This document shows positions 3 to 12,220 of a DNA stretch of 32,000 bases, piece by piece. The first letter of the stretch is position 1, and the number at the start of each line of letters is the position of its first letter. A program made the translations under genes and the position numbers. Where the stretch lies: assembly GCA_021498095.1 (NCBI GenBank), contig JAIZWK010000001.1, forward strand, positions 180,001 through 212,000, read 5' to 3'. Origin of the DNA: Candidatus Harpocratesius repetitus (GTDB taxonomy: Archaea; Asgardarchaeota; Lokiarchaeia; Sigyniarchaeales; Promethearchaeaceae). The notes under the pieces are model-generated. The model made no database searches, was not told where the DNA came from, and saw nothing but the letters and a program-made list of their open reading frames with translations.

Positions 3-278
3 CCAATAGTAGATCGCTTGATTTTAAGATTATTTCGGAAGCGGATATTGCAGAAGAAGCACTTTACAGATGAAGGCGATGAATTTGGAATGCGTTTTAC
101 GAAATCTGGAATGGAGATCTTTCTTCGTGAGTTTTATTATTTAGTTCGGAAACAGGGCGAATATATAAAGGGTACATTCATAACTTATCAAAATTTGATG
201 TTAAACCAAGCGCGAATGATGGTTCGTTATTTTTTGGGTAAAGTAAAATCGTATAAGCCATTTTTAATGAAATGGTAA
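3..278 (+). CDS. cas1: CRISPR-associated integrase Cas1, C-terminal part (5' end outside window)
   Basis: Frame is open from position 3 (PIVDRLILRLFRK...), resembling the Cas1 'P.VDR.V' region. It ends in YKPFLMKW, a typical Cas1 'Y.PF' terminus, and lies directly upstream of cas2 and cas4. Confidence 0.88.
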   Translation, partial: PIVDRLILRLFRKRILQKKHFTDEGDEFGMRFTKSGMEIFLREFYYLVRKQGEYIKGTFITYQNLMLNQARMMVRYFLGKVKSYKPFLMKW

Positions 279-314
279 AAGTGCGTTGAATTTTCCAAAA
301 AAGAGAAGAAAGTC

Positions 315-382
315 AAAAAGCAAAGAAGGAAAAAAAGAGAAGAAGGTTAAAAAGCAAAAAAGGAAAAAAAGAGAAGAAGGAT
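315..382. repeat. 34-bp purine-rich tandem repeat (2 full copies plus partial flanks) between cas1 and cas2
   Basis: AAAAAGCAAAGAAGGAAAAAAAGAGAAGAAGGTT (315-348) and AAAAAGCAAAAAAGGAAAAAAAGAGAAGAAGGAT (349-382) differ at 2 positions. A partial copy lies at ~297-314. Confidence 0.85.
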
Positions 383-413
383 AAAAAGAGAACCTAATCG
401 AAGTGCTTAAAAT

Positions 414-2171
414 ATGAATTACTTAGTTACTTTTGATATTCCCGTGGAGAATACTCGATTGCGAACAAAATTGGGGGAGAAATGCATGGATTACGGACTT
501 TTTCGCATTCAATTATCTGTTTTTTGGGGGAGTTTAGAGAAAGCCGCTTTACAGGATTTAATGTTTGAATGTGAAGAGTTAATTGATAATTCACCTGCAG
601 ATATAAGGTTTTTTGCCGTTTGTGATCAATGTTTAGAGAAGTCGTATGTGATAGCGAATAATTCTCAAATTCGAACTTTGCAAGCAAAAAAGTTAAGCGA
701 GAATATAAAACTGACAACACTTTCGCACATTGATGTTGGATGGATAGAGAAATCTAAAGATTCACAGAAAAAGAAGAAATCGAAAAAGAAAAAATCGAAA
801 AAGAAAGAGAGTTCAGAAAATCAAGAAAATATAGTCAATCAAGAAAGCGTTGTCAATCAAGAAAGTGCAATTAATCAAAAATCAGATAAAAAAGTAGAAA
901 TCAGAGAAACGACAATAAATGGAACAGAAAAAGCGATAAATGAAACAGAAAAAGCAATAATTGAAGGATTAACGAAAGAACAGAGCAAAATAGCAAAAGT
1001 AACAGCCAAACCCGAGCCATTAATGAAGGAAAAGAAAAGAGGGAAATTGGATAATGGAATAGAAAAAAACGTTTTAGAATTATTCGATTTATCAGATGAT
1101 AAAGTTTGGAAGCAGTTTCAGTCAGAATTTTTAGAGCCTTCAATGATAGATGAGAATGAATTAAAACAAGGCGATAATTTAAAGAAATCAACTGATATAG
1201 AAAAGTTACGAGAGATAGAAAAAATAAATGGAAAAATTCATGAAATAAAAAAAGAAAAAGAAGAAATTCATAAAACAGGAAAGGAAAGAGAGAAAATACA
1301 TAAAACAGGAAAGGAAAGAGAGAAAATACAGAATATAGAAAAAGAAAGAGAAAATATACATGAGAAAGGAAGCGAAAGATTTGATGACACAGACTCAATT
1401 GAAGGAGGAATAAAGGAAGAAAAGAGAGATAATATCAACAACGATATTCTAAACAATGCGCTTAGTACTTTTTTGAGAGAGAGCCTTCAAGATGCAATTA
1501 AATTTTGTATTTTTTCTGAAAGTCAGTTTGATTATGAACAAACACATAAACCTGAAATTTCAAAAGAAATGTTATTAGAAAAACAAAAAGAGAAGTTAAG
1601 ACAAGATAAAAAGGAAGATTCAAGAGATTTATCAGAACCAGCAGATACACAACAAACACAACAAACACAACATACACAACATACACAACAATTAAAAGAC
1701 ATATCAGGCACCAAAATAGAAAAAGAAAAGGAAAACGATATAGAGCAGAATAGTATTAGTGAAAACAAAAGGGAAAGCTTTTTAGAAGAGTCAGATTTAG
1801 GAAGGATCCTTAGTTTAGGAGATGATTTGCAGCAGAAAGAATCAGTTCCGTTTTTTATGACGAAAGAATTAATGAAATGGTTGCAAACTGGAGAAGGAAA
1901 TGAATTAGTTGATGAATCGGAATCATTTCCCATAATTGAGAAAGATTTTATTGAGAAAGTTTTGTCTGAATCTGAAAAATATGTGCAAATGGACAAGAAT
2001 GATGATGAAATAGATAATATAGGAGATGTAAATGGGGAAAATCCGAAAGATTTGAGTGAAACATTTGTAACACTAAAAGATATCATGAAAAATATATCTT
2101 TGTTAGAAAAAAAGAGCGGACAAAAGCCGAAATATCATGGATTTGTTGATATTGATGTACTTCTTGTTTAA
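414..2171 (+). CDS. cas2: Cas2 with ~490-aa low-complexity, repeat-containing insertion/extension
   Basis: The N-terminal ~85 aa are a classic Cas2 (YLVTFDI...RLRTKL...C.DYGLFRIQLSVFWG...IRFFAVCDQC). The rest is K/E/N/Q-rich with tandem peptide repeats and ends in HGFVDIDVLLV. The gene sits between cas1 and cas4. Confidence 0.9.
   Translation: MNYLVTFDIPVENTRLRTKLGEKCMDYGLFRIQLSVFWGSLEKAALQDLMFECEELIDNSPADIRFFAVCDQCLEKSYVIANNSQIRTLQAKKLSENIKLTTLSHIDVGWIEKSKDSQKKKKSKKKKSKKKESSENQENIVNQESVVNQESAINQKSDKKVEIRETTINGTEKAINETEKAIIEGLTKEQSKIAKVTAKPEPLMKEKKRGKLDNGIEKNVLELFDLSDDKVWKQFQSEFLEPSMIDENELKQGDNLKKSTDIEKLREIEKINGKIHEIKKEKEEIHKTGKEREKIHKTGKEREKIQNIEKERENIHEKGSERFDDTDSIEGGIKEEKRDNINNDILNNALSTFLRESLQDAIKFCIFSESQFDYEQTHKPEISKEMLLEKQKEKLRQDKKEDSRDLSEPADTQQTQQTQHTQHTQQLKDISGTKIEKEKENDIEQNSISENKRESFLEESDLGRILSLGDDLQQKESVPFFMTKELMKWLQTGEGNELVDESESFPIIEKDFIEKVLSESEKYVQMDKNDDEIDNIGDVNGENPKDLSETFVTLKDIMKNISLLEKKSGQKPKYHGFVDIDVLLV
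768..956 (+). repeat. In-frame tandem repeats in cas2: 15-bp (KKKKS) at 768-806, 18-bp (NQE-x-x-x) at 819-880, 21-bp (IN(G/E)TEKA) at 915-956
   Basis: Read directly from the sequence; all unit lengths are multiples of 3 and in frame with cas2. Confidence 0.85.
1251..1370 (+). repeat. 30-bp in-frame tandem repeat x4 in cas2 (KEKEEIHKTG/KEREKIHKTG/KEREKIQNIE/KERENIHEKG)
   Basis: Units at 1251, 1281, 1311 and 1341; a weaker unit at 1221. Confidence 0.9.
1647..1691 (+). repeat. 9-bp in-frame tandem repeat x5 in cas2 (TQQ TQQ TQH TQH TQQ)
   Basis: ACACAACA(A/T) occurs five times in tandem. Confidence 0.95.
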
Positions 2172-2251: not shown

Positions 2252-2303
2252 AAAAACACAAAAAGAAGAAATTTAAGAAAAACACAAAAAGAAGAAAGTT
2301 AAG
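2252..2303. repeat. 26-bp purine-rich tandem repeat x2 between cas2 and cas4
   Basis: AAAAACACAAAAAGAAGAAATTTAAG and AAAAACACAAAAAGAAGAAAGTTAAG differ at 1 position. Confidence 0.85.
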
Positions 2304-2348
2304 GAAAATGTGCACTAAATTGAGCAAAATAAAAATAAAACCAATAAA

Positions 2349-3044
2349 GTGAAAAAAATGGATGTTTATATGGAAAATTGGTATGGATCAGAAAATTCCA
2401 GCTCAGATAATTGGCTTTTTTCAGCAGAAGAACTTCGACAGTATATTTACTGTCCTCGGATACCATTTCTCAGGCATGTTCGGAAAATAAAACCAAATTC
2501 AACAGCTTCAATGCGTCGTGGAACCAAATTTCATCAAGACATTGTACGAAAACGAAGAAAGTTACAGAAATGGCTCCTAATTAATGATAAACATAAATTT
2601 AATAGTATACCACCTCAATACTATTTTAATCTCTATTTTGAATCGCCCACACTTCATTTACTTGCTTATCTTGATGTTGTAGAGAAGAATCCAAATACAG
2701 ATGAGTTATATCCTGTTGAAATCAAAACAACTTCAAATTTTCCGATATCCAGGGATAAAATCATTGAACATCATCTTATCCAATTGACAGTGCAAAGTTT
2801 GCTATTGGAAGAACATTTTAAGACATTTATTTCTCGAGCAAAAATAATATATGTAAGTAATGAGCTAAATCACACCCACTCTTTATCATTATGGCAGGAA
2901 ATCAGTATCGATATGAAAGAGACAGTATTGAAAACCGTTGCTGATATGCACAGAGAAATATCATCAGAAATTTTACCAAGGCCAACAAAAATAAAAAATC
3001 GGTGTAAAGTATGCGAATATTGGACAATTTGCAGGTCGGTATGA
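2349..3044 (+). CDS. cas4: CRISPR-associated exonuclease Cas4
   Basis: N-terminal 'QYIYCPR' Cys, 'M.RG..FH', RecB-like 'YLDVVE...PVEIK' and 'QL..Q' motifs, and C-terminal C..C.Y...C cluster (RCKVCEYWTIC). The start codon is uncertain. Confidence 0.92.
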   Translation: MKKMDVYMENWYGSENSSSDNWLFSAEELRQYIYCPRIPFLRHVRKIKPNSTASMRRGTKFHQDIVRKRRKLQKWLLINDKHKFNSIPPQYYFNLYFESPTLHLLAYLDVVEKNPNTDELYPVEIKTTSNFPISRDKIIEHHLIQLTVQSLLLEEHFKTFISRAKIIYVSNELNHTHSLSLWQEISIDMKETVLKTVADMHREISSEILPRPTKIKNRCKVCEYWTICRSV

Positions 3045-3363: not shown

Positions 3364-5682
3364 ATGAAATTACTAATGATTTTAACAAAAAAGAAGCGAA
3401 AAATTATGAATATGATTGAAGCGCAAATTAGATTTAATAAAAAGGAAAAGCATCAAATTAATAATGGCGAAAACTGGAAAACTTCTGAAAATAATGCAAT
3501 TTTTATAGGAGCTCATAAAAAAAAGATAATTATTTTTGGTAATACTAATAAAAGCTTTGGAATTCGCATAGATTGGACAATAAAAATATATAATGCAGCA
3601 TCAATCGAAGACTATAATCCATTAAATCCAATGATGATACATGGAAAATTGCAGACTCAAGACTTAATTAAATCATATATTCATGATTTTCAAGTACAAT
3701 GGCAGAAGTTCTACCCAATTGACAAATTCAGCATATTTTCTAATTTCGATGAAAATTTAAAAAATAAAAACCAAAAGAAATCAGCTTTATCAAAACAAGT
3801 AAAAAATATTACAGAAAAGATGAATATTGAGATTTTTAAAAATAGAGAGAATCAAAATAATCAAGAAAATCATAATATTCAAGCGAATGATAATAATCAA
3901 GCGAATCAAATGATTCAAAAAGAACGCACATTCATAAAAACTCATGAAAATACTACACAAACATGGGATGAATTAAAATCTCGATTGCAACAAACATTTA
4001 CTCCTGAAAAATTTGGAATTGATTTTATCTCCCACGGCCATGCAGACCATTCACCATTGTCAACTAATTTACCTGAAACACTAATTTTCAATCCGATTAC
4101 AAATGATATCGAGAAAATTCGTTTCTTTCCGCTTCCTATATTAACAACCAGACAAAATTTGAAAATATTAGAGAATCGATTTAGTTGTAAATTAATATCA
4201 TTTATAGATTGGTATAAAAATGAATTGGATATTATTGATGATAAAGAATTGAAATCAAGGGAGATGAATAGCAAAACAGATAAGAAAGAGAACAAATCAA
4301 GTAAGAGAGAAAGCAAAGGAAATAAGAAAATCAACAAACAAGATAAAAACGTCAGAAAATCCCTGAACAAAAATAATATATTTTCTATCATAAATTGGAC
4401 AGAGTTTGAAAAAAAGCAGTTATTTGATTATTTTCGCAAGCTTAGACAGGAATATTCAAAATTTTTTAAAGAAAAAATGAAAGAATACATTCAAATTCAA
4501 TCTTACTCTGATGGTTATGATGATATTTCTAAAGAAAAAATAGATAACAGTGCAGATGATATAACAGATACAAGTGATATAACTCAAATTTTGTTCAAAT
4601 ATCCTAATGGTAATAGAAGATGGCTTTTTATTTTTGAAGATATAGAAAATTGGCTTGAAAATGAGAATTATTTCTATCCTATCATCATTCAAAACTATGT
4701 AATTTGGTTAATTCCTTCAGGTCATGTAATCGGTTCAGCGGGTTTATGTATTTGTAGAAAAGAAGCAATTTTTCAAGAAATATTAAAGAATCACACAAAA
4801 TCTAATAGATTTCAAACCATTTGTGATGTTCTATATATGGGAGAATTTATTCCATATTTTCGAGGTCATTGTCTTATTCCGCCACCAATTAGAGCAGCGA
4901 ATATAATAATTGATGCATTGTATGGAGATCCGCATCAAATATTCAATCTTTTTGATTCGGAAGTGCAACATCTAAAAACTTGGATAAATTCAGTTTTTAA
5001 AAAGGATAATTTGGGGAATATTGTTTTTTTTTGTAGAGAACTTGGTAAACCCCAATTCTTACTACAAATTTTGTGGGAATATATTCATGAAAATTGTAAT
5101 GAAAATTGTAAAAACACTGACAATACTCAAAATATTAAACAGACACAACAAGAATTAATTACTCAAACTCAGTCATTAACGCAAACTGAGAATTCGATAG
5201 AAAGTAATCAGAAAGCAGTAAAAAATAATCACTACATCCCACTATTGATCATGCCAAGTTCTTTTTTCAATCTACAACAGGTTATTCTTTCGGATAATTT
5301 ATTTCAAACGCTGAAAAATAAGGAGATCTTAATAACAAAAACGATAGCAAATCAAGGGAAAAAAAAGGATAACAGGCATTTTATAATGTTAGAATTACCA
5401 CGCCAAAGATATTCAAATGCATTCAAAAATTTTCTGGTAAAATACAAGTCAAAAATAGCAGAAATTTCCGGATGGTGCAGCCAATTAAATTATCGAGAGA
5501 AACATCCAGCTGATGAATATTTTGAAATTTCAGATCATGGAAATATAATAGAAATGACTGAATGCTTAAAACAAAATGAAATTAACAAAGTTTGGATAAT
5601 CAATAATTTGTCAAATTTACCCTTGAAATATTTACGAGAGCATGATATACAATGTGGTATACTATCAACGATTAAATTATGA
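3364..5682 (+). CDS. Metallo-beta-lactamase/beta-CASP family nuclease (COG1236/ligase-associated exonuclease-like) with large insertions
   Basis: Motifs appear in the expected order: SHGHADH, PSGHVIGSA, LYMGEF (normally TGD), IIDALYGDP, ELGKPQ (cf. YALGKAQ), ISGW, ISDHGN. N/Q/K-rich inserts lie between them. Confidence 0.8.
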   Translation: MKLLMILTKKKRKIMNMIEAQIRFNKKEKHQINNGENWKTSENNAIFIGAHKKKIIIFGNTNKSFGIRIDWTIKIYNAASIEDYNPLNPMMIHGKLQTQDLIKSYIHDFQVQWQKFYPIDKFSIFSNFDENLKNKNQKKSALSKQVKNITEKMNIEIFKNRENQNNQENHNIQANDNNQANQMIQKERTFIKTHENTTQTWDELKSRLQQTFTPEKFGIDFISHGHADHSPLSTNLPETLIFNPITNDIEKIRFFPLPILTTRQNLKILENRFSCKLISFIDWYKNELDIIDDKELKSREMNSKTDKKENKSSKRESKGNKKINKQDKNVRKSLNKNNIFSIINWTEFEKKQLFDYFRKLRQEYSKFFKEKMKEYIQIQSYSDGYDDISKEKIDNSADDITDTSDITQILFKYPNGNRRWLFIFEDIENWLENENYFYPIIIQNYVIWLIPSGHVIGSAGLCICRKEAIFQEILKNHTKSNRFQTICDVLYMGEFIPYFRGHCLIPPPIRAANIIIDALYGDPHQIFNLFDSEVQHLKTWINSVFKKDNLGNIVFFCRELGKPQFLLQILWEYIHENCNENCKNTDNTQNIKQTQQELITQTQSLTQTENSIESNQKAVKNNHYIPLLIMPSSFFNLQQVILSDNLFQTLKNKEILITKTIANQGKKKDNRHFIMLELPRQRYSNAFKNFLVKYKSKIAEISGWCSQLNYREKHPADEYFEISDHGNIIEMTECLKQNEINKVWIINNLSNLPLKYLREHDIQCGILSTIKL

Positions 5683-5773: not shown

Positions 5774-6001
5774 ATGTTAACAAGCAAAATTAGTAAAAAA
5801 GGGCAGATTGTAATTCCTCGCCAAATCCGAGAAAAATTAAATATTAAAGCAGGGGATGTGCTTCATTTTTATCAAGTTGGAAACCGTATTTATATCGAGA
5901 AAGATAAAAGTGATTCATTACCTAGAATGGTTGAAATATTGAAACGCGGAAAACCGTTTGCACCAAGATTGATTAAAAATTTGCGAGATGAATGGAATTG
6001 A
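5774..6001 (+). CDS. vapB: AbrB/MazE/SpoVT-type antitoxin (VapB-like)
   Basis: SKISKKGQIVIPRQIREKLNIKAGD is a swapped-hairpin signature; the gene overlaps the downstream PIN gene by 10 bp. Confidence 0.88.
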   Translation: MLTSKISKKGQIVIPRQIREKLNIKAGDVLHFYQVGNRIYIEKDKSDSLPRMVEILKRGKPFAPRLIKNLRDEWN

Positions 6002-6414
6002 AAATATGTATCGATTCGAATGTCTTTATATCAATTCACAACCAAGAGTCTAACCATACAGAATGCGAAAAAATTATTGATGCAATTGAAACTAACCAAC
6101 ATAAAGGGCTGGTTTCAGTAATTGTAATTTCAGAATTGTTGGTAGGATATTATCAAATTGGAGAAATGAGTGAATTAAATTTATTCCTGTCAAAGGCAAA
6201 GATGCTATATGAGTTAATTCCAATATCATTGAGTATTGCTCAAGAAGCTGCCGAATTACGGGCGCTATATCAGATCAAATTACCTGATGCGATTATTCTT
6301 GCTACAGCGAAGCTTTATAATGCAGATTACCTGATTTCTAATGATATTAAATTGATAAAGAGGCCATATTTTCCAATTATTACAGCAGAAGATTTTGTAT
6401 TGAAATTTCTTTAG
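5992..6414 (+). CDS. vapC: PIN-domain toxin (VapC-like)
   Basis: ICIDSNVFI, SEL, LPDAIILATA and LISND carry the acidic PIN motif residues. Confidence 0.9.
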   Translation: MELKICIDSNVFISIHNQESNHTECEKIIDAIETNQHKGLVSVIVISELLVGYYQIGEMSELNLFLSKAKMLYELIPISLSIAQEAAELRALYQIKLPDAIILATAKLYNADYLISNDIKLIKRPYFPIITAEDFVLKFL

Positions 6415-8624: not shown

Positions 8625-9620
8625 ATGATTAAAAAGATTCAAGTAAATTCTGTAGAAAAAGATTTTGTTCAGATAATTTACAAATTGATTGACACAAACC
8701 TTTTTGAATTGACTATTCTTAGTATAAATGAGAACCAAATGGCGATGCTCACACAGTTTATCTTTACCCTTTACCCTCATGAATCCACCGGTCCCTACTT
8801 TCTTCAACCATTTGCTTATATTTTCCGAGGTATTTTCATGAATTGGCTTAAAGCCTTTAATTCTACTGTTGGTGATGATCTCCACAAAAAGCAGCCCAAA
8901 GATTCAAATCTTTTTATGCTAGAATATGCCCTTCAGCAAGAACTTCACTATTCGTCTGATTCAAACCTAAATCATTCCGCAAATTCTTCACGTAACTATC
9001 GCAGAAATCGATCTCATTCACGTCGCTCCAATGTTAATAAAATTACATATACAATTTCTTCATTAAACGATTCAATTTCTCAAGCCCTTCTGAATTTTCT
9101 GCTGCAGCAGCGAGATACAACCATTCAATATGCAATGCAAAAGGCAGTAATTGCTCAAGTTGAAATTAAACAGAAAAGCCTCATCGATTTAACAAAAACT
9201 GAAAATAGACCGAAATCATTGAAAATTAAATTTCTAACACCTACTGCTTTCAGTATTCGTGGAAAAAAGACCATGATGCGCTTACCCCTTCCCGAATATT
9301 TCTTTCCAAATTTAGCAAAGCTGTGGGATAGTGTTTTTAAAGAAACAGATTATCAAGTTCCCGATTTGTTTTTTGAATGGGTCAATCAACATATTTCAAT
9401 CTCTTCATTCCAATTAAAAACTCATGCTTGGGACATGGGTAAGGACATAAAATTCACCGGTGCTTCCGGTTGGATAAATTACATTAATGATGATTCAAAT
9501 AATCCATTAAGCATTTGGCTGGATATTTTGACACGATTTGGAGAAGATATGAATACTGGAAACGGCCGAACTGCGGGATTCGGACAATTCAAAGTAATTA
9601 ATAGTTTTAGTTCTAGTTGA
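8625..9620 (+). CDS. cas6: CRISPR RNA-processing endoribonuclease Cas6 (probable start ATG 8739)
   Basis: IKFLTPTAF, LP.PE..F..L...W, TGASGW, and the C-terminal G-rich loop TGNGRTAGFGQ (GhGxxxxxGhG type). Confidence 0.88.
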   Translation: MIKKIQVNSVEKDFVQIIYKLIDTNLFELTILSINENQMAMLTQFIFTLYPHESTGPYFLQPFAYIFRGIFMNWLKAFNSTVGDDLHKKQPKDSNLFMLEYALQQELHYSSDSNLNHSANSSRNYRRNRSHSRRSNVNKITYTISSLNDSISQALLNFLLQQRDTTIQYAMQKAVIAQVEIKQKSLIDLTKTENRPKSLKIKFLTPTAFSIRGKKTMMRLPLPEYFFPNLAKLWDSVFKETDYQVPDLFFEWVNQHISISSFQLKTHAWDMGKDIKFTGASGWINYINDDSNNPLSIWLDILTRFGEDMNTGNGRTAGFGQFKVINSFSSS

Positions 9621-9755: not shown

Positions 9756-9866
9756 ATCTCAATTTAAATGCGGATTTTACTAGTAAAGTATAAATTTGGA
9801 TGCAAAAATTCTTATAAAAGTCTCAATTGAAATGCGAGAAATCATAAAAAAGTCTCAATTAAAATG
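9756..9866. repeat. Four 16-bp motifs (consensus GTCTCAATTNAAATGC) with 32/32/31-bp period upstream of the AAA ATPase
   Basis: Copies start at 9756 (ATCTCAATTTAAATGC), 9788 (GTATAAATTTGGATGC, degenerate 11/16), 9820 (GTCTCAATTGAAATGC) and 9851 (GTCTCAATTAAAATGC). Confidence 0.75.
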
Positions 9867-11180
9867 CAACATTTTTTATTTATTAATAATTTAATATATT
9901 CAATGAATATTTCAAAAGAAAATCTTCGAAAGATAGTAGAAGAACAATATGAAATGATTATCAAAAAACCGGTTGGAATTCCTCGAGAAAAATTGTCAAT
10001 AATTGCAGAAAAAAAAAAGGCGACACATGTTATTATTATAACAGGACTCCGAAGGTGTGGGAAATCAACTTTTTTACGACAAATCATGCATTTTTATTAT
10101 CATGATGAGAATTTTTACTATCTAAATTTTGATGATGAACGATTAGTTGGTTGTACATCAGAAGATTTTGATTTAATTTATGAAGTATTGTTGGAACAAT
10201 TTGGAGATCATCAAGTTTTTTTTTTTGATGAAATACAAAATGTGCCGAAATTTGAACGGTTTATTCGACGATTACATGATTTGGAAAATAAAATCTATTT
10301 AACAGGATCAAATGCCACCCTTCTCAGTAGCGAGATTTCTACAAAATTAACTGGGCGTCATTTAGATATTGAACTATTTCCTTTTTCTTTTCGTGAATAT
10401 CTCAAATTAAAAGATGTAGAAATTAATAATTCTTTACTATATACAACAAAAGGAAGAGGAAAGATCATAAAATTATTTGATAATTACTTGCATAAAGGAG
10501 GAATGCCTGAATTTCTAAAAATAAATGATTATGAAATATTACAGCGGTTATATGAAGATATTCTTATTAAGGATATTACTGTACGATATAAAATTCAACA
10601 TGTTCGGGAACTCAGAGAAATTGTGAAATATCTCTTCTCTAACATTGGACAAAAAACAAACTATTCTCGTCTTTGCAAGTTAGTAAATATCAGAAGTCCT
10701 AACACAGTAAAAAATTACTTAGATTACTTGCAGCTAACATATTTAGGATTTTTAATTCCAAAATTAGATTATAGTGTCAAAAAACAAATTGTTTCTGGTC
10801 AAAAATATTATGCGATAGATTTAGGTATAGTTGAATATATCTCTGTAAAATTATCCAGAGATCTCGGTTGGGCATTAGAAAATCTTGTATTTCTCTCTTT
10901 GCGAAGAAAATATCCCATTTCTAAGATTTTTTATTATGATAATGGGTCAGAATGCGATTTTGTGATTCGGAATGAAGTGAAAGTTAGAAAAGCGATTCAA
11001 GTTTCTTACTTTTTAGACGAACACAATAAGAAGAGAGAAATAGAAGGACTTTTAAAGATAATGAAGCATTTTAACTTGGATTCAGGCTTAATTCTAACAT
11101 ATGAACAGGAAGAAGAATTAGACACTCCAGCAGGCTTGATTCACATAATCCCTGTTTGGAAATGGCTTTTGCAAGAATAG
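9864..11180 (+). CDS. AAA_14/DUF4143 family ATPase (probable start ATG 9903)
   Basis: Walker A GLRRCGKST, Walker B FFFDEIQ, LTGSNA, LTGR, GGMPE, K.Y.ID.G, LENLVF, ECDFVI and AIQVS match the COG1373-type pattern. Confidence 0.92.
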   Translation: MQHFLFINNLIYSMNISKENLRKIVEEQYEMIIKKPVGIPREKLSIIAEKKKATHVIIITGLRRCGKSTFLRQIMHFYYHDENFYYLNFDDERLVGCTSEDFDLIYEVLLEQFGDHQVFFFDEIQNVPKFERFIRRLHDLENKIYLTGSNATLLSSEISTKLTGRHLDIELFPFSFREYLKLKDVEINNSLLYTTKGRGKIIKLFDNYLHKGGMPEFLKINDYEILQRLYEDILIKDITVRYKIQHVRELREIVKYLFSNIGQKTNYSRLCKLVNIRSPNTVKNYLDYLQLTYLGFLIPKLDYSVKKQIVSGQKYYAIDLGIVEYISVKLSRDLGWALENLVFLSLRRKYPISKIFYYDNGSECDFVIRNEVKVRKAIQVSYFLDEHNKKREIEGLLKIMKHFNLDSGLILTYEQEEELDTPAGLIHIIPVWKWLLQE

Positions 11181-11258
11181 TTAATTTTCTAATCGTACTC
11201 TATATCTTTTATCCTGCATATTAAGCCAATAAGATCATATTATTTTGCATGCAAAATT

Positions 11259-11605
11259 ATATACAATATCTTCATTAAACGATTCAATTTCTCAAGTACT
11301 TCTGAATTTTCTGCTGCAACAGCGAGATACAACCATTCAATATGCAATGCAAAAGGCAGTAATTGCTCAAGTTGAAATTAAACAGAAAAGCCTCATCGAT
11401 TTAACAAAAACTGAAAATAGACCGAAATCCTTGAAAATTAAATTTCTAACACCCACAGCTTTCAGTATTCGTGGAAAAAAGACCATGATGCGCTTACCCC
11501 TTCCCGAATATTTCTTTCCAAATTTAGCAAAGCTGTGGGATAGTGTTTTTAAAGAAACAGATTATCAAGTTCCCGATTTGTTTTTTGAATGGGTCAATCA
11601 ACATA
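11259..11605 (+). pseudogene. Internal cas6 fragment; 347-bp direct repeat of 9047..9393 with 7 substitutions
   Basis: Base-by-base comparison gives ~98% identity at an offset of 2212. The fragment lacks the Cas6 N-terminus and G-rich loop, and its frame runs on into the antisense of the longin-like gene. Confidence 0.92.
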
Positions 11606-11653
11606 ATCAAAATGCTATTGTTTATCCTTCAATTGTAAATCCCAGTACCTTAA

Positions 11654-12220
11654 TTATTGAAAAAGGCGTGACCACAACAATTTTAATCGATCTCTCATCC
11701 CTGTCAACTTTCCAAACTGAGTTCGTTGCAAATATTCTGTCACTTGTGTCTGTAATTTTTCTTCAAATGCTTTAAAATATTCTAAATTTCCATCCCAATC
11801 TTGTAGCATATCAACAGGGTAATTGCGAACAAAGACATCGAGGGCACTCTCGGCTTCATCACGTAGATTGATTTTTTTCATCTCTTGATCCATTAATGCA
11901 AAAATCATCAGTTCCATATTTGAATAACTCTTAACAAACACATATATATCGAAATCTGCTGTGTGGAATGTTAATTCTTGAGATACTGAAACGAGATTTT
12001 CGCAGAATGTGTGAATAGCCGAGAGAAATGGGACCATAATATTTTCATTCACACTCTCATCAAGTTTTAGCGTGATAAAAGGTAATCCAGATTTATTGCT
12101 GATAACTACAGCCCTTACACCAAACTTAGTAGAATCCAATGATGATAACCCCGCTTTTTCGTATTTCTTTTGTTGTAAATCTGTTTTAAGCATTTTATTA
12201 TTTAAATTAGATGATTTCAT
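11654..12220 (-). CDS. Longin-like domain protein (Asgard type), paralog of 22481..23014
   Basis: RAVVISNKSGLP...PFLSAI.TF...F...YP...L..WDGN...F.AFEE.L is a pattern typical of Asgard longin-like domains. It aligns without gaps to the second copy over its core. Confidence 0.65.
   Translation of the reverse strand: MKSSNLNNKMLKTDLQQKKYEKAGLSSLDSTKFGVRAVVISNKSGLPFITLKLDESVNENIMVPFLSAIHTFCENLVSVSQELTFHTADFDIYVFVKSYSNMELMIFALMDQEMKKINLRDEAESALDVFVRNYPVDMLQDWDGNLEYFKAFEEKLQTQVTEYLQRTQFGKLTGMRDRLKLLWSRLFQ

Follow-up and report, generated by a model that had tools for sequence, protein, structure and literature searches.

How does Cas2, one of the two universal CRISPR proteins and viewed as a small, invariant bridge with a short tail that grips Cas1, come to be 585 amino acids (aa) long, and where in such a protein is the tail? 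The question is raised by a cas2 gene in the Asgard archaeon Candidatus Harpocratesius repetitus (Lokiarchaeia, Promethearchaeaceae; assembly GCA_021498095.1). The window analyzed here is a stretch of 32,000 nucleotides (contig JAIZWK010000001.1, G000:C1:180001-212000) from a single-contig genome of 4.36 Mb and 31% GC. Positions given without a prefix are those of the window. The cas2 open reading frame (ORF) lies at 414..2171 on the plus strand and was assigned from its open frame, Pfam and simulations. We find a canonical Cas2 core followed by charged linkers that separate short conserved islands, and we tentatively read the last island as a Cas1-binding tail carried far from the core.

Reading frame and core of the giant Cas2

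The ORF is open for 585 codons and encodes a product of 585 aa plus a stop, six times as long as usual; a single-domain Cas2 protein has ~80-120 aa. Its own frame (frame 1) contains only the terminal stop, as the initial annotation had noted for the extension, while frames 2 and 3 contain 59 and 55. When the extension was simulated 5000 times with a first-order Markov model, the stops averaged 34.6 and no run was free of them. Codon position 1 is enriched in G, like that of the long genes of the genome. Short-read contigs, which are probably from the source sample and whose match is not independent of the assembly, cover 300-2300 without indels. In X1 they are also without substitutions, and one contig of X2, of low depth, has A instead of G at 749. 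The sole contig break across this interval falls within a 30 bp repeat. The giant Cas2 is almost certainly a real protein that is translated to its end.

The first 83 residues (414..662, plus strand) form a canonical ferredoxin-like Cas2 core, as identified by Pfam, hhalign and PDB matches. PF09827 (CRISPR_Cas2) matches aa 1-76 with an E-value of 5.9e-15 (55.7 bits vs. a cut-off of 23.8), which covers positions 1-73 of the 74 in the profile, and aa 1-82 align to 35 normal-length Asgard Cas2 proteins with a probability of 99.7 (hhalign). The closest solved relatives are the PDB Cas2 proteins SSO1404 (2IVY, S. solfataricus), TT1823 (1ZPW, T. thermophilus) and BH0342 (4ES1, B. halodurans), which have the same core fold signature. 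Asp8, in VTFDIP, aligns with the Asp of YD[IV] that is invariant in 35/35 normal Asgard Cas2 proteins and also present in the PDB Cas2 proteins; by this alignment it is the conserved Asp at the end of beta1, the metal-binding/catalytic position. The core runs intact through CDQCLEKSYVI (aa 70-80), as first described, and includes a CxxC and a beta5-like KSYVIAN segment; beta5 is the strand that is swapped in Cas2 homodimers. The same beta1-end Asp and the same beta4-CxxC-beta5 ending occur in canonical Cas2, e.g., BH0342 in a Cas4-Cas1-Cas2 complex (8D3L). We are confident that this canonical core is followed by a conserved segment specific to the family, aa 84-112. Past it the known domains end: aa 110-585 match no Pfam family, even at E-values up to 1, and neither this search nor a profile of aa 455-585 found a fused helicase/HD or DEDDh exonuclease domain.

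Like canonical cas2, the gene lies between cas1 and cas4, near a CRISPR array. The order is a 152-repeat array, a 950-aa multi-Cys protein, cas1 (507 aa), cas2 (585 aa) and cas4 (231 aa), followed by a 772-aa beta-CASP-like protein, a MazE/PIN pair and cas6. Cas1 and Cas2 are each single-copy in the whole genome. There are 213 CRISPR repeats in four arrays that have one 37-nt repeat in common (G000:C1:119812-119923, 125024-125437, 133706-137630 and 163384-174745, with 2, 6, 53, and 152 copies). The largest array, 0.9 kb upstream of the operon, holds 151 spacers of 36-40 nt, 150 of them unique. Since the giant Cas2 is the sole Cas2 of the genome, it is the only one available to this large and diverse spacer collection; with Cas3 and RAMP effector modules nearby as well, it is likely to be functional. 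The one duplicated spacer of the largest array recurs four spacers apart.

Linkers and conserved islands

Three homologues of the giant Cas2 were found (738, 418, and 401 aa). One is annotated to a Candidatus Harpocratesius sp. and one to a Promethearchaeota archaeon, and all are named simply "Cas2" in public records. Two were traced to contigs with the same cas operon (L037 and L038). A word-based search for short relatives of aa 1-112 returned none, which reflects the limit of the method. Cas2 is present in 88 of the 400 Asgard species genomes surveyed, and the ~135 Asgard Cas2 matches lie in stop-to-stop frames of 63-291 aa, except for the giant Cas2 at 586. We found no description of a long or disordered Cas2 of such kind in the literature searched on long Cas2, Asgard CRISPR adaptation and Harpocratesius, a coverage outside which the survey of Makarova et al. 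(2020) falls. The new element is a disordered arm that is conserved, carries motifs and is without precedent in a bona fide Cas2.

The architecture of core, linkers and islands is retained in all four homologues. In the following, invariant residues are those identical in all four, and the ratio of nonsynonymous to synonymous divergence (dN/dS) is that against the Harpocratesius homologue, at a synonymous divergence of ~1-1.6. All segments are on the plus strand. The core is 83% invariant (dN/dS 0.02), and the segment after it (aa 84-112; 663..749), which ends in HIDVGW, is 45% invariant (dN/dS 0.04). Linker 1 (aa 113-221; 750..1076) is basic, carries repeats of 15, 18, and 21 bp including a poly-Lys block, and is 2% invariant (dN/dS ~0.8). 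Island A (aa 222-246; 1077..1151) contains the LFDLSDDKVWKQFQSEFLEPS motif and is 56% invariant, with a proportion of nonsynonymous differences (pN) of 0.10 at saturated synonymous sites. Linker 2 (aa 247-462; 1152..1799) is K/E-rich, carries the 30 bp and 9 bp repeats and is 1% invariant. Island B (aa 463-522; 1800..1979) contains GxIL..., PFFMTKELMKWL and IEKDFIEKVL (dN/dS 0.16); its identity to the Harpocratesius homologue is 77%, and 20% of its residues are invariant across the four. Linker 3 (aa 523-548; 1980..2057) is acidic and 0% invariant (dN/dS ~0.84). Island C (aa 549-585; 2058..2168) consists of a predicted helix and then the terminal hydrophobic strand KYHGFVDIDVLLV, with which the protein ends. 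It is 59% invariant, with a dN/dS of 0.05 at a dS of ~1.2, and its last 13 aa are 77% invariant, so that the terminal peptide is conserved in each long homologue, as the reading in the initial annotation required.

The dN/dS of island C at this dS points to protein-level selection as strong as on the core and also shows translation reaching the end of the ORF. There is little doubt that three charged, disorder-like linkers separate three short modules under purifying selection, and we are equally sure that the constraint on the last of them (aa 549-585) is as tight as that on the core. The linkers are of another kind. They are 0-2% invariant with a dN/dS of 0.6-0.84, their lengths in the homologues range from 58 to 109 aa (linker 1), 61 to 319 aa (linker 2) and 27 to 83 aa (linker 3), and their composition varies by subgroup, K/E/N-rich vs. 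S/T/A/P-rich. The extension had been described as a ~490-aa low-complexity tether. It is indeed mostly disorder-like, as the charge-hydropathy plot assigns 86% of aa 113-585 to its disordered side, but it is not uniformly of low complexity, as ~120 of its ~470 residues form the three conserved, non-repetitive islands. The main exception in the plot is the last ~20 residues, and the end of island C is the only strongly hydrophobic stretch of the extension.

Net charge is +11 in the linker at aa 113-221 and -12, -7, and -6 in the segments after it, which bears out the acidic distal half first noted. A conserved pattern of basic proximal and acidic distal charge was rejected, as the sign of the charge is only weakly kept among the homologues. 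In two of them linker 1 is rich in S/T/A/P and not in Lys, so a conserved DNA-binding role of the poly-Lys block is unlikely. A PCNA-interaction motif (PIP box) was sought by eye in the islands and rejected: position 4 of QKESVPFF is not hydrophobic, the Q is out of register in a homologue, and P0003 and P0004 have no FF pair. Structure prediction was of little use. AlphaFold2 of the full protein, built from 4 sequences, gave a predicted local distance difference test score (pLDDT) of 38 that was low even in the known core, and the model therefore says nothing on order or disorder; the C-terminal module alone reached a pLDDT of 42.5, too low-confidence to use. ESM Atlas look-alikes of aa 455-585 gave no usable match.

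The repeats indicate how the linkers arose. Tandem Repeats Finder (TRF) places the five in-frame families and the poly-Lys block where the initial annotation had them: 15 bp at 767-806 (the poly-Lys block), 18 bp at 819-878, 21 bp at 905-965, 30 bp at 1232-1379 (4.4 copies) and 9 bp at 1647-1691 (5 copies). All periods inside the cas2 ORF are multiples of 3, here and in L037. The flanking intergenic DNA contains purine-rich tandem repeats whose periods are not, namely 17/34 bp at 297..392 and 26 bp at 2252..2308 (TRF, unstranded); those adjoining the L037 cas2 have periods of 20, 10, 28, 23, 34, 11, 22, 43, and 86 bp. Coding repeats of 3n only amid intergenic repeats of other periods fit slippage across the locus that is filtered by selection on the frame. 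Copy number varies as well, as had been anticipated for long Asgard Cas2 proteins: the 30 bp repeat has 4.4 copies here vs. 14.7 in the Harpocratesius homologue (L037), and a 21 bp unit multiplied in the L037 cas2 is single-copy in cas2 here. The linkers very probably arose by tandem duplication in frame, and both their sequence and their length evolve near-neutrally. The intergenic repeats of the operon are similar in composition to the coding ones. In L037 they lie at L037:7393-7967 and 11201-11450, again with periods that are not multiples of 3, and the cas1-cas2 spacer is 135 bp here vs. ~640 bp in L037.

The C-terminal 131 aa (aa 455-585) have no convincing relative outside the family among 1.84 billion representative proteins searched by profile. 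One extra match, to 12 stretches of a repetitive 2131-aa protein, was taken as compositional. As the search found the family only, we see no stand-alone or otherwise-fused version of the module. A search of genome contigs with the same module had no match, and a search of metagenome contigs found one contig (Ga0164318_10248107; L086:1-661), a near-identical but frameshifted copy of the 401-aa homologue P0004. The frameshift falls in linker 3 and puts island C in another frame; the cause is a sequencing error within a run rich in A or else a true disruption of the allele.

The protein terminus and its possible docking on Cas1

What does island C do? In S. pyogenes the Cas2 tail past beta5 (residues 92-113) is disordered alone and is both necessary and sufficient for Cas1 binding (Ka et al., 2018; PMC6182153). 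This type II-A tail, unstructured past beta5 and with an end that binds Cas1, may serve by analogy as a model for island C. The type II-A tails are 18-22 residues long (S. pyogenes 92-113, E. faecalis 92-109) and contiguous with the core, whereas the putative tail here lies ~490 residues away. We favor the reading, to which we give a probability of about 0.42, that island C is a docking element on a tether: most likely it is the tail that binds Cas1, now far removed from the core. As in other systems, the core would dimerize and form the bridge between two Cas1 dimers. The linkers would have grown by replication slippage in slippage-prone, purine-rich DNA, within the naturally unstructured part of Cas2 between beta5 and the tail, and islands A and B may be additional short sites at which other operon proteins dock.

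Other Asgard Cas2 proteins point the same way. Those of normal length (87-110 aa) have beta5, a polar/acidic linker of 6-10 residues and a short hydrophobic terminus (EEVVIT, (Y)KIIEDILSM, KVAYI, DVYIL, KVVIF). The orthologues of G053 and G056 (L053/L058; 118-123 aa) have K/E/P linkers of 35-40 aa before GKGVVVL and GKGVLIF. Cas2 of G055 (L034, G055:C8) has 270 aa and ends in DKKVVLI, Cas2 of G143 (L032, G143:C191:2711-3583) has 290 aa and ends in DKVTFI, and the linkers of both are ~165-190 aa. We scored termini with a C-anchored position-specific scoring matrix (PSSM) built from 25 non-redundant normal Asgard Cas2 termini. The terminus ranks 1/177 and 2/198 within its own protein for the G055 and G143 Cas2. 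A putative tethered-tail pattern, in which the linker is stretched and the hydrophobic end kept, thus recurs in several independent Asgard Cas2 lineages. These elongated proteins (G143 belongs to the same family-level taxon) resemble the giant Cas2 in their normal core, polar/charged linker (35-190 aa) and hydrophobic terminus. They differ in being shorter, in lacking islands A-C and in having extensions that are not detectably homologous, and they appear to be independent expansions.

For the giant Cas2 itself the PSSM gives a weaker signal in favor: the terminal 8-mer ranks 20/494, among the best 4% of all 8-mers in the protein, and compared with the C-termini of the genome's crude gene calls it scores in the top 3%. 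Several points weigh against a displaced tail. The likeness of the terminus to normal tails is weak and appears generic only. A BLOSUM62 local test of the last 14 aa against the 25 normal tails ranked them 474/483 among the protein's own windows, a test that is biased because K/E-rich windows match the K/E-rich linkers of normal tails. Thus, of the resemblance to a usual Cas2 tail that the initial annotation had seen, the generic part stood and a specific match did not. No tail-to-tail match was obtained by hhalign, for which the motif is too short. The extension of the G143 Cas2 has no detectable homology to the C-terminal module, so a continuous series of intermediates is not established. 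The family has four members, all from related lineages, and the translation of the giant Cas2 is deduced from its sequence. Finally, aa 84-112 directly follow beta5, the usual place of Cas1-binding tails, and could be the real docking element. The proposed insertion between core and tail therefore stands as far as the elongated Asgard Cas2 proteins of 118-123, 270, and 290 aa support it, and is countered by a conserved segment at the position of the tail. A complex prediction of full-length Cas1 with the last 46 residues of Cas2, run without controls, scored 0.00 and is evidence neither way.

The position of aa 84-112 leads to an alternative that we hold to be slightly less likely than the displaced tail. 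In it these residues bind Cas1, and the rest is an added C-terminal arm whose islands A-C recruit other partners: Cas4, the beta-CASP-like nuclease, the 950-aa multi-Cys protein or a host replication/repair factor. The low dN/dS of aa 84-112 supports it, as do their helix and GW motif, partly common to the 290-aa Cas2 of G143, the poor showing of the terminal peptide in the BLOSUM test, and the conservation of the multi-Cys protein, Cas4 and the beta-CASP-like protein in all four genomes. However, aa 84-112 are likewise unlike normal tails, and the hhalign alignment ends at residue 82. G143 has the same operon partners but no islands A-C, and the other elongated Asgard Cas2 proteins carry a canonical hydrophobic terminus at the far end, not beside the core.

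A Cas2 that works by its first ~110 residues, with the extension a functionless slippage product in AT-/purine-rich DNA, is improbable. The near-neutral linkers, variable several-fold in length and changing in composition from K/E/N-rich to S/T/A/P-rich, are what it predicts; similar purine-rich repeats occur in flanking non-coding DNA, and Cas1, the 950-aa protein and the beta-CASP-like protein are expanded too. Islands A and C, however, are under core-like purifying selection at saturated synonymous divergence, the frame has stayed open for 473 codons with no repeats other than 3n fixed inside it, and the architecture is kept in all four homologues. Neutral growth explains the linkers, not the islands. 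An artefact of misassembly, of a sequencing error that removed a stop or of an accidental fusion with a downstream gene is very unlikely: repeat-rich DNA is prone to assembly errors, contigs break in the 30 bp repeat and the P0004-like metagenome contig is frameshifted, but the architecture is equal in three other independent assemblies that have the same operon, the contigs across 300-2300 lack indels, no stand-alone homologue of the C-terminal module was found among the 1.84 billion representative proteins, cas2 and cas4 of relatives are not separated by a further gene, and the selection acting on island C implies that this frame is translated. Fusion with a separate gene was rejected on the absence of such a gene in relatives and of a stand-alone module.

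The adaptation operon and the meaning of a long Cas2

The neighboring proteins grow together with Cas2 across four related operons. Cas1, Cas2 and the beta-CASP-like protein have 353-356, 290, and 563 aa in G143, 391, 401, and 612 aa in L038, 448, 738, and 814 aa in L037, and 507, 585, and 772 aa in this genome. Compared with its relatives, Cas1 here is enlarged by a charged, K/E/N-rich stretch of ~150 aa that separates the N-terminal domain from the catalytic one; as this insert is shorter in L037 and L038 and absent in G143, it scales with the Cas2 extension. Among ~3300 crude gene calls of the genome, ~1% have at least 100 residues in K/E/R/D-rich windows, and a genome-wide low-complexity habit was therefore rejected as the sole cause of the extension. 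The adjacent genes for the 950-aa protein, Cas1 and Cas2 are all in the top ~30 for such content, so the expansion is concentrated in the adaptation operon. The Cas2 arm, the Cas1 insert and the repeat-laden neighbors may even be a system of disordered regions that tethers Cas1, Cas4 and accessory nucleases in a supercomplex or condensate, a proposal that we consider doubtful. The initial annotation had suggested that the linker might bind DNA, scaffold Cas4 or the beta-CASP nuclease, or form condensates.

The 3' end of cas1 (Pfam Cas_Cas1) opens the window at 3..278 on the plus strand; the full gene, for 507 aa, is at G000:C1:178755-180278 (L036:3755-5278). cas4 (2349..3044, plus strand; Pfam PDDEXK_1 and Cas_Cas4) encodes a PD-(D/E)XK nuclease of 231 aa with a C-terminal Cys cluster. 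The 772-aa metallo-beta-lactamase/beta-CASP-like protein (3364..5682, plus strand) was assigned by synteny, with weak RMMBL matches in orthologues only. Such a protein (563-814 aa) directly follows cas4 in 4/4 related operons, with N/Q/K-rich inserts here, and is a candidate accessory nuclease for adaptation. The 950-aa protein with clustered Cys motifs (G000:C1:175668-178520; L036:668-3520) lies between the array and cas1 and has no convincing Pfam match. It is packed with long in-frame repeats, e.g., ~16 copies of an 18 bp unit encoding AEETQY/PEETQY. Orthologues of 948 aa in L037 and of at least 539 aa in G143 likewise precede cas1.

Inside the cas locus, after the beta-CASP-like gene and before cas6, a MazE-type antitoxin gene (75 aa) overlaps a PIN-domain toxin gene (140 aa) by 10 bp (5774..6414). 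The full cas6 (8625..9620) and a second, partial Cas6-like ORF (11245..11775) flank an AAA_14/DUF4143 ATPase gene (9864..11180), a family that also follows the L037 operon. Proteins of ~1000 aa with an RNase_Zc3h12a (NYN) domain occur near the related cas operons (L037:15863-18217 and L038:8373-11372). The Cas3 core helicase and two clusters of RAMP genes are located 20-55 kb upstream (G000:C1:126-133 kb, 143 kb, and 154-160 kb; L069-L079). The two effector sets, type III-like and type I-like, apparently share one Cas1-Cas2 module.

Enlarged polypeptides that contain Cas2 are known: Cas2-Cas3 of type I-F, Cas2-DEDDh exonuclease fusions and Cas1-Cas2 fusions. The giant Cas2 resembles them in placing Cas2 within a larger polypeptide of the adaptation machinery. 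In the fusions folded enzymatic domains have been added, whereas here the addition is mostly disorder-like sequence with short conserved motifs. Canonical Cas2 proteins have 87-110 aa, and the giant Cas2 differs from them by ~470 extra residues between or after beta5 and the C-terminus and by three conserved modules without relatives outside the family. The islands are candidates for new interaction motifs for Cas4 or for the accessory beta-CASP-like and multi-Cys proteins, and motifs of this type are hard to find otherwise. The gene also illustrates cleanly how a protein grows when repeats slip in frame, with neutral linkers beside selected motifs. Asgard archaea are the archaeal lineage closest to eukaryotes, in which architectures of linkers and motifs are the norm; if the proposed supercomplex or condensate exists, an Asgard immune system would have a machine organized in the eukaryotic style, by disordered regions and short motifs.

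Here a natural Cas2 apparently works with ~470 extra residues and is the sole Cas2 behind more than 200 spacers. If it does so, the distance between core and tail would be unconstrained. This architecture, together with a natural series of lengths (97, 120, 270-290, and 400-740 aa) in which the effect of tethering on integrase assembly can be followed, makes the role of the Cas2 tail directly testable.

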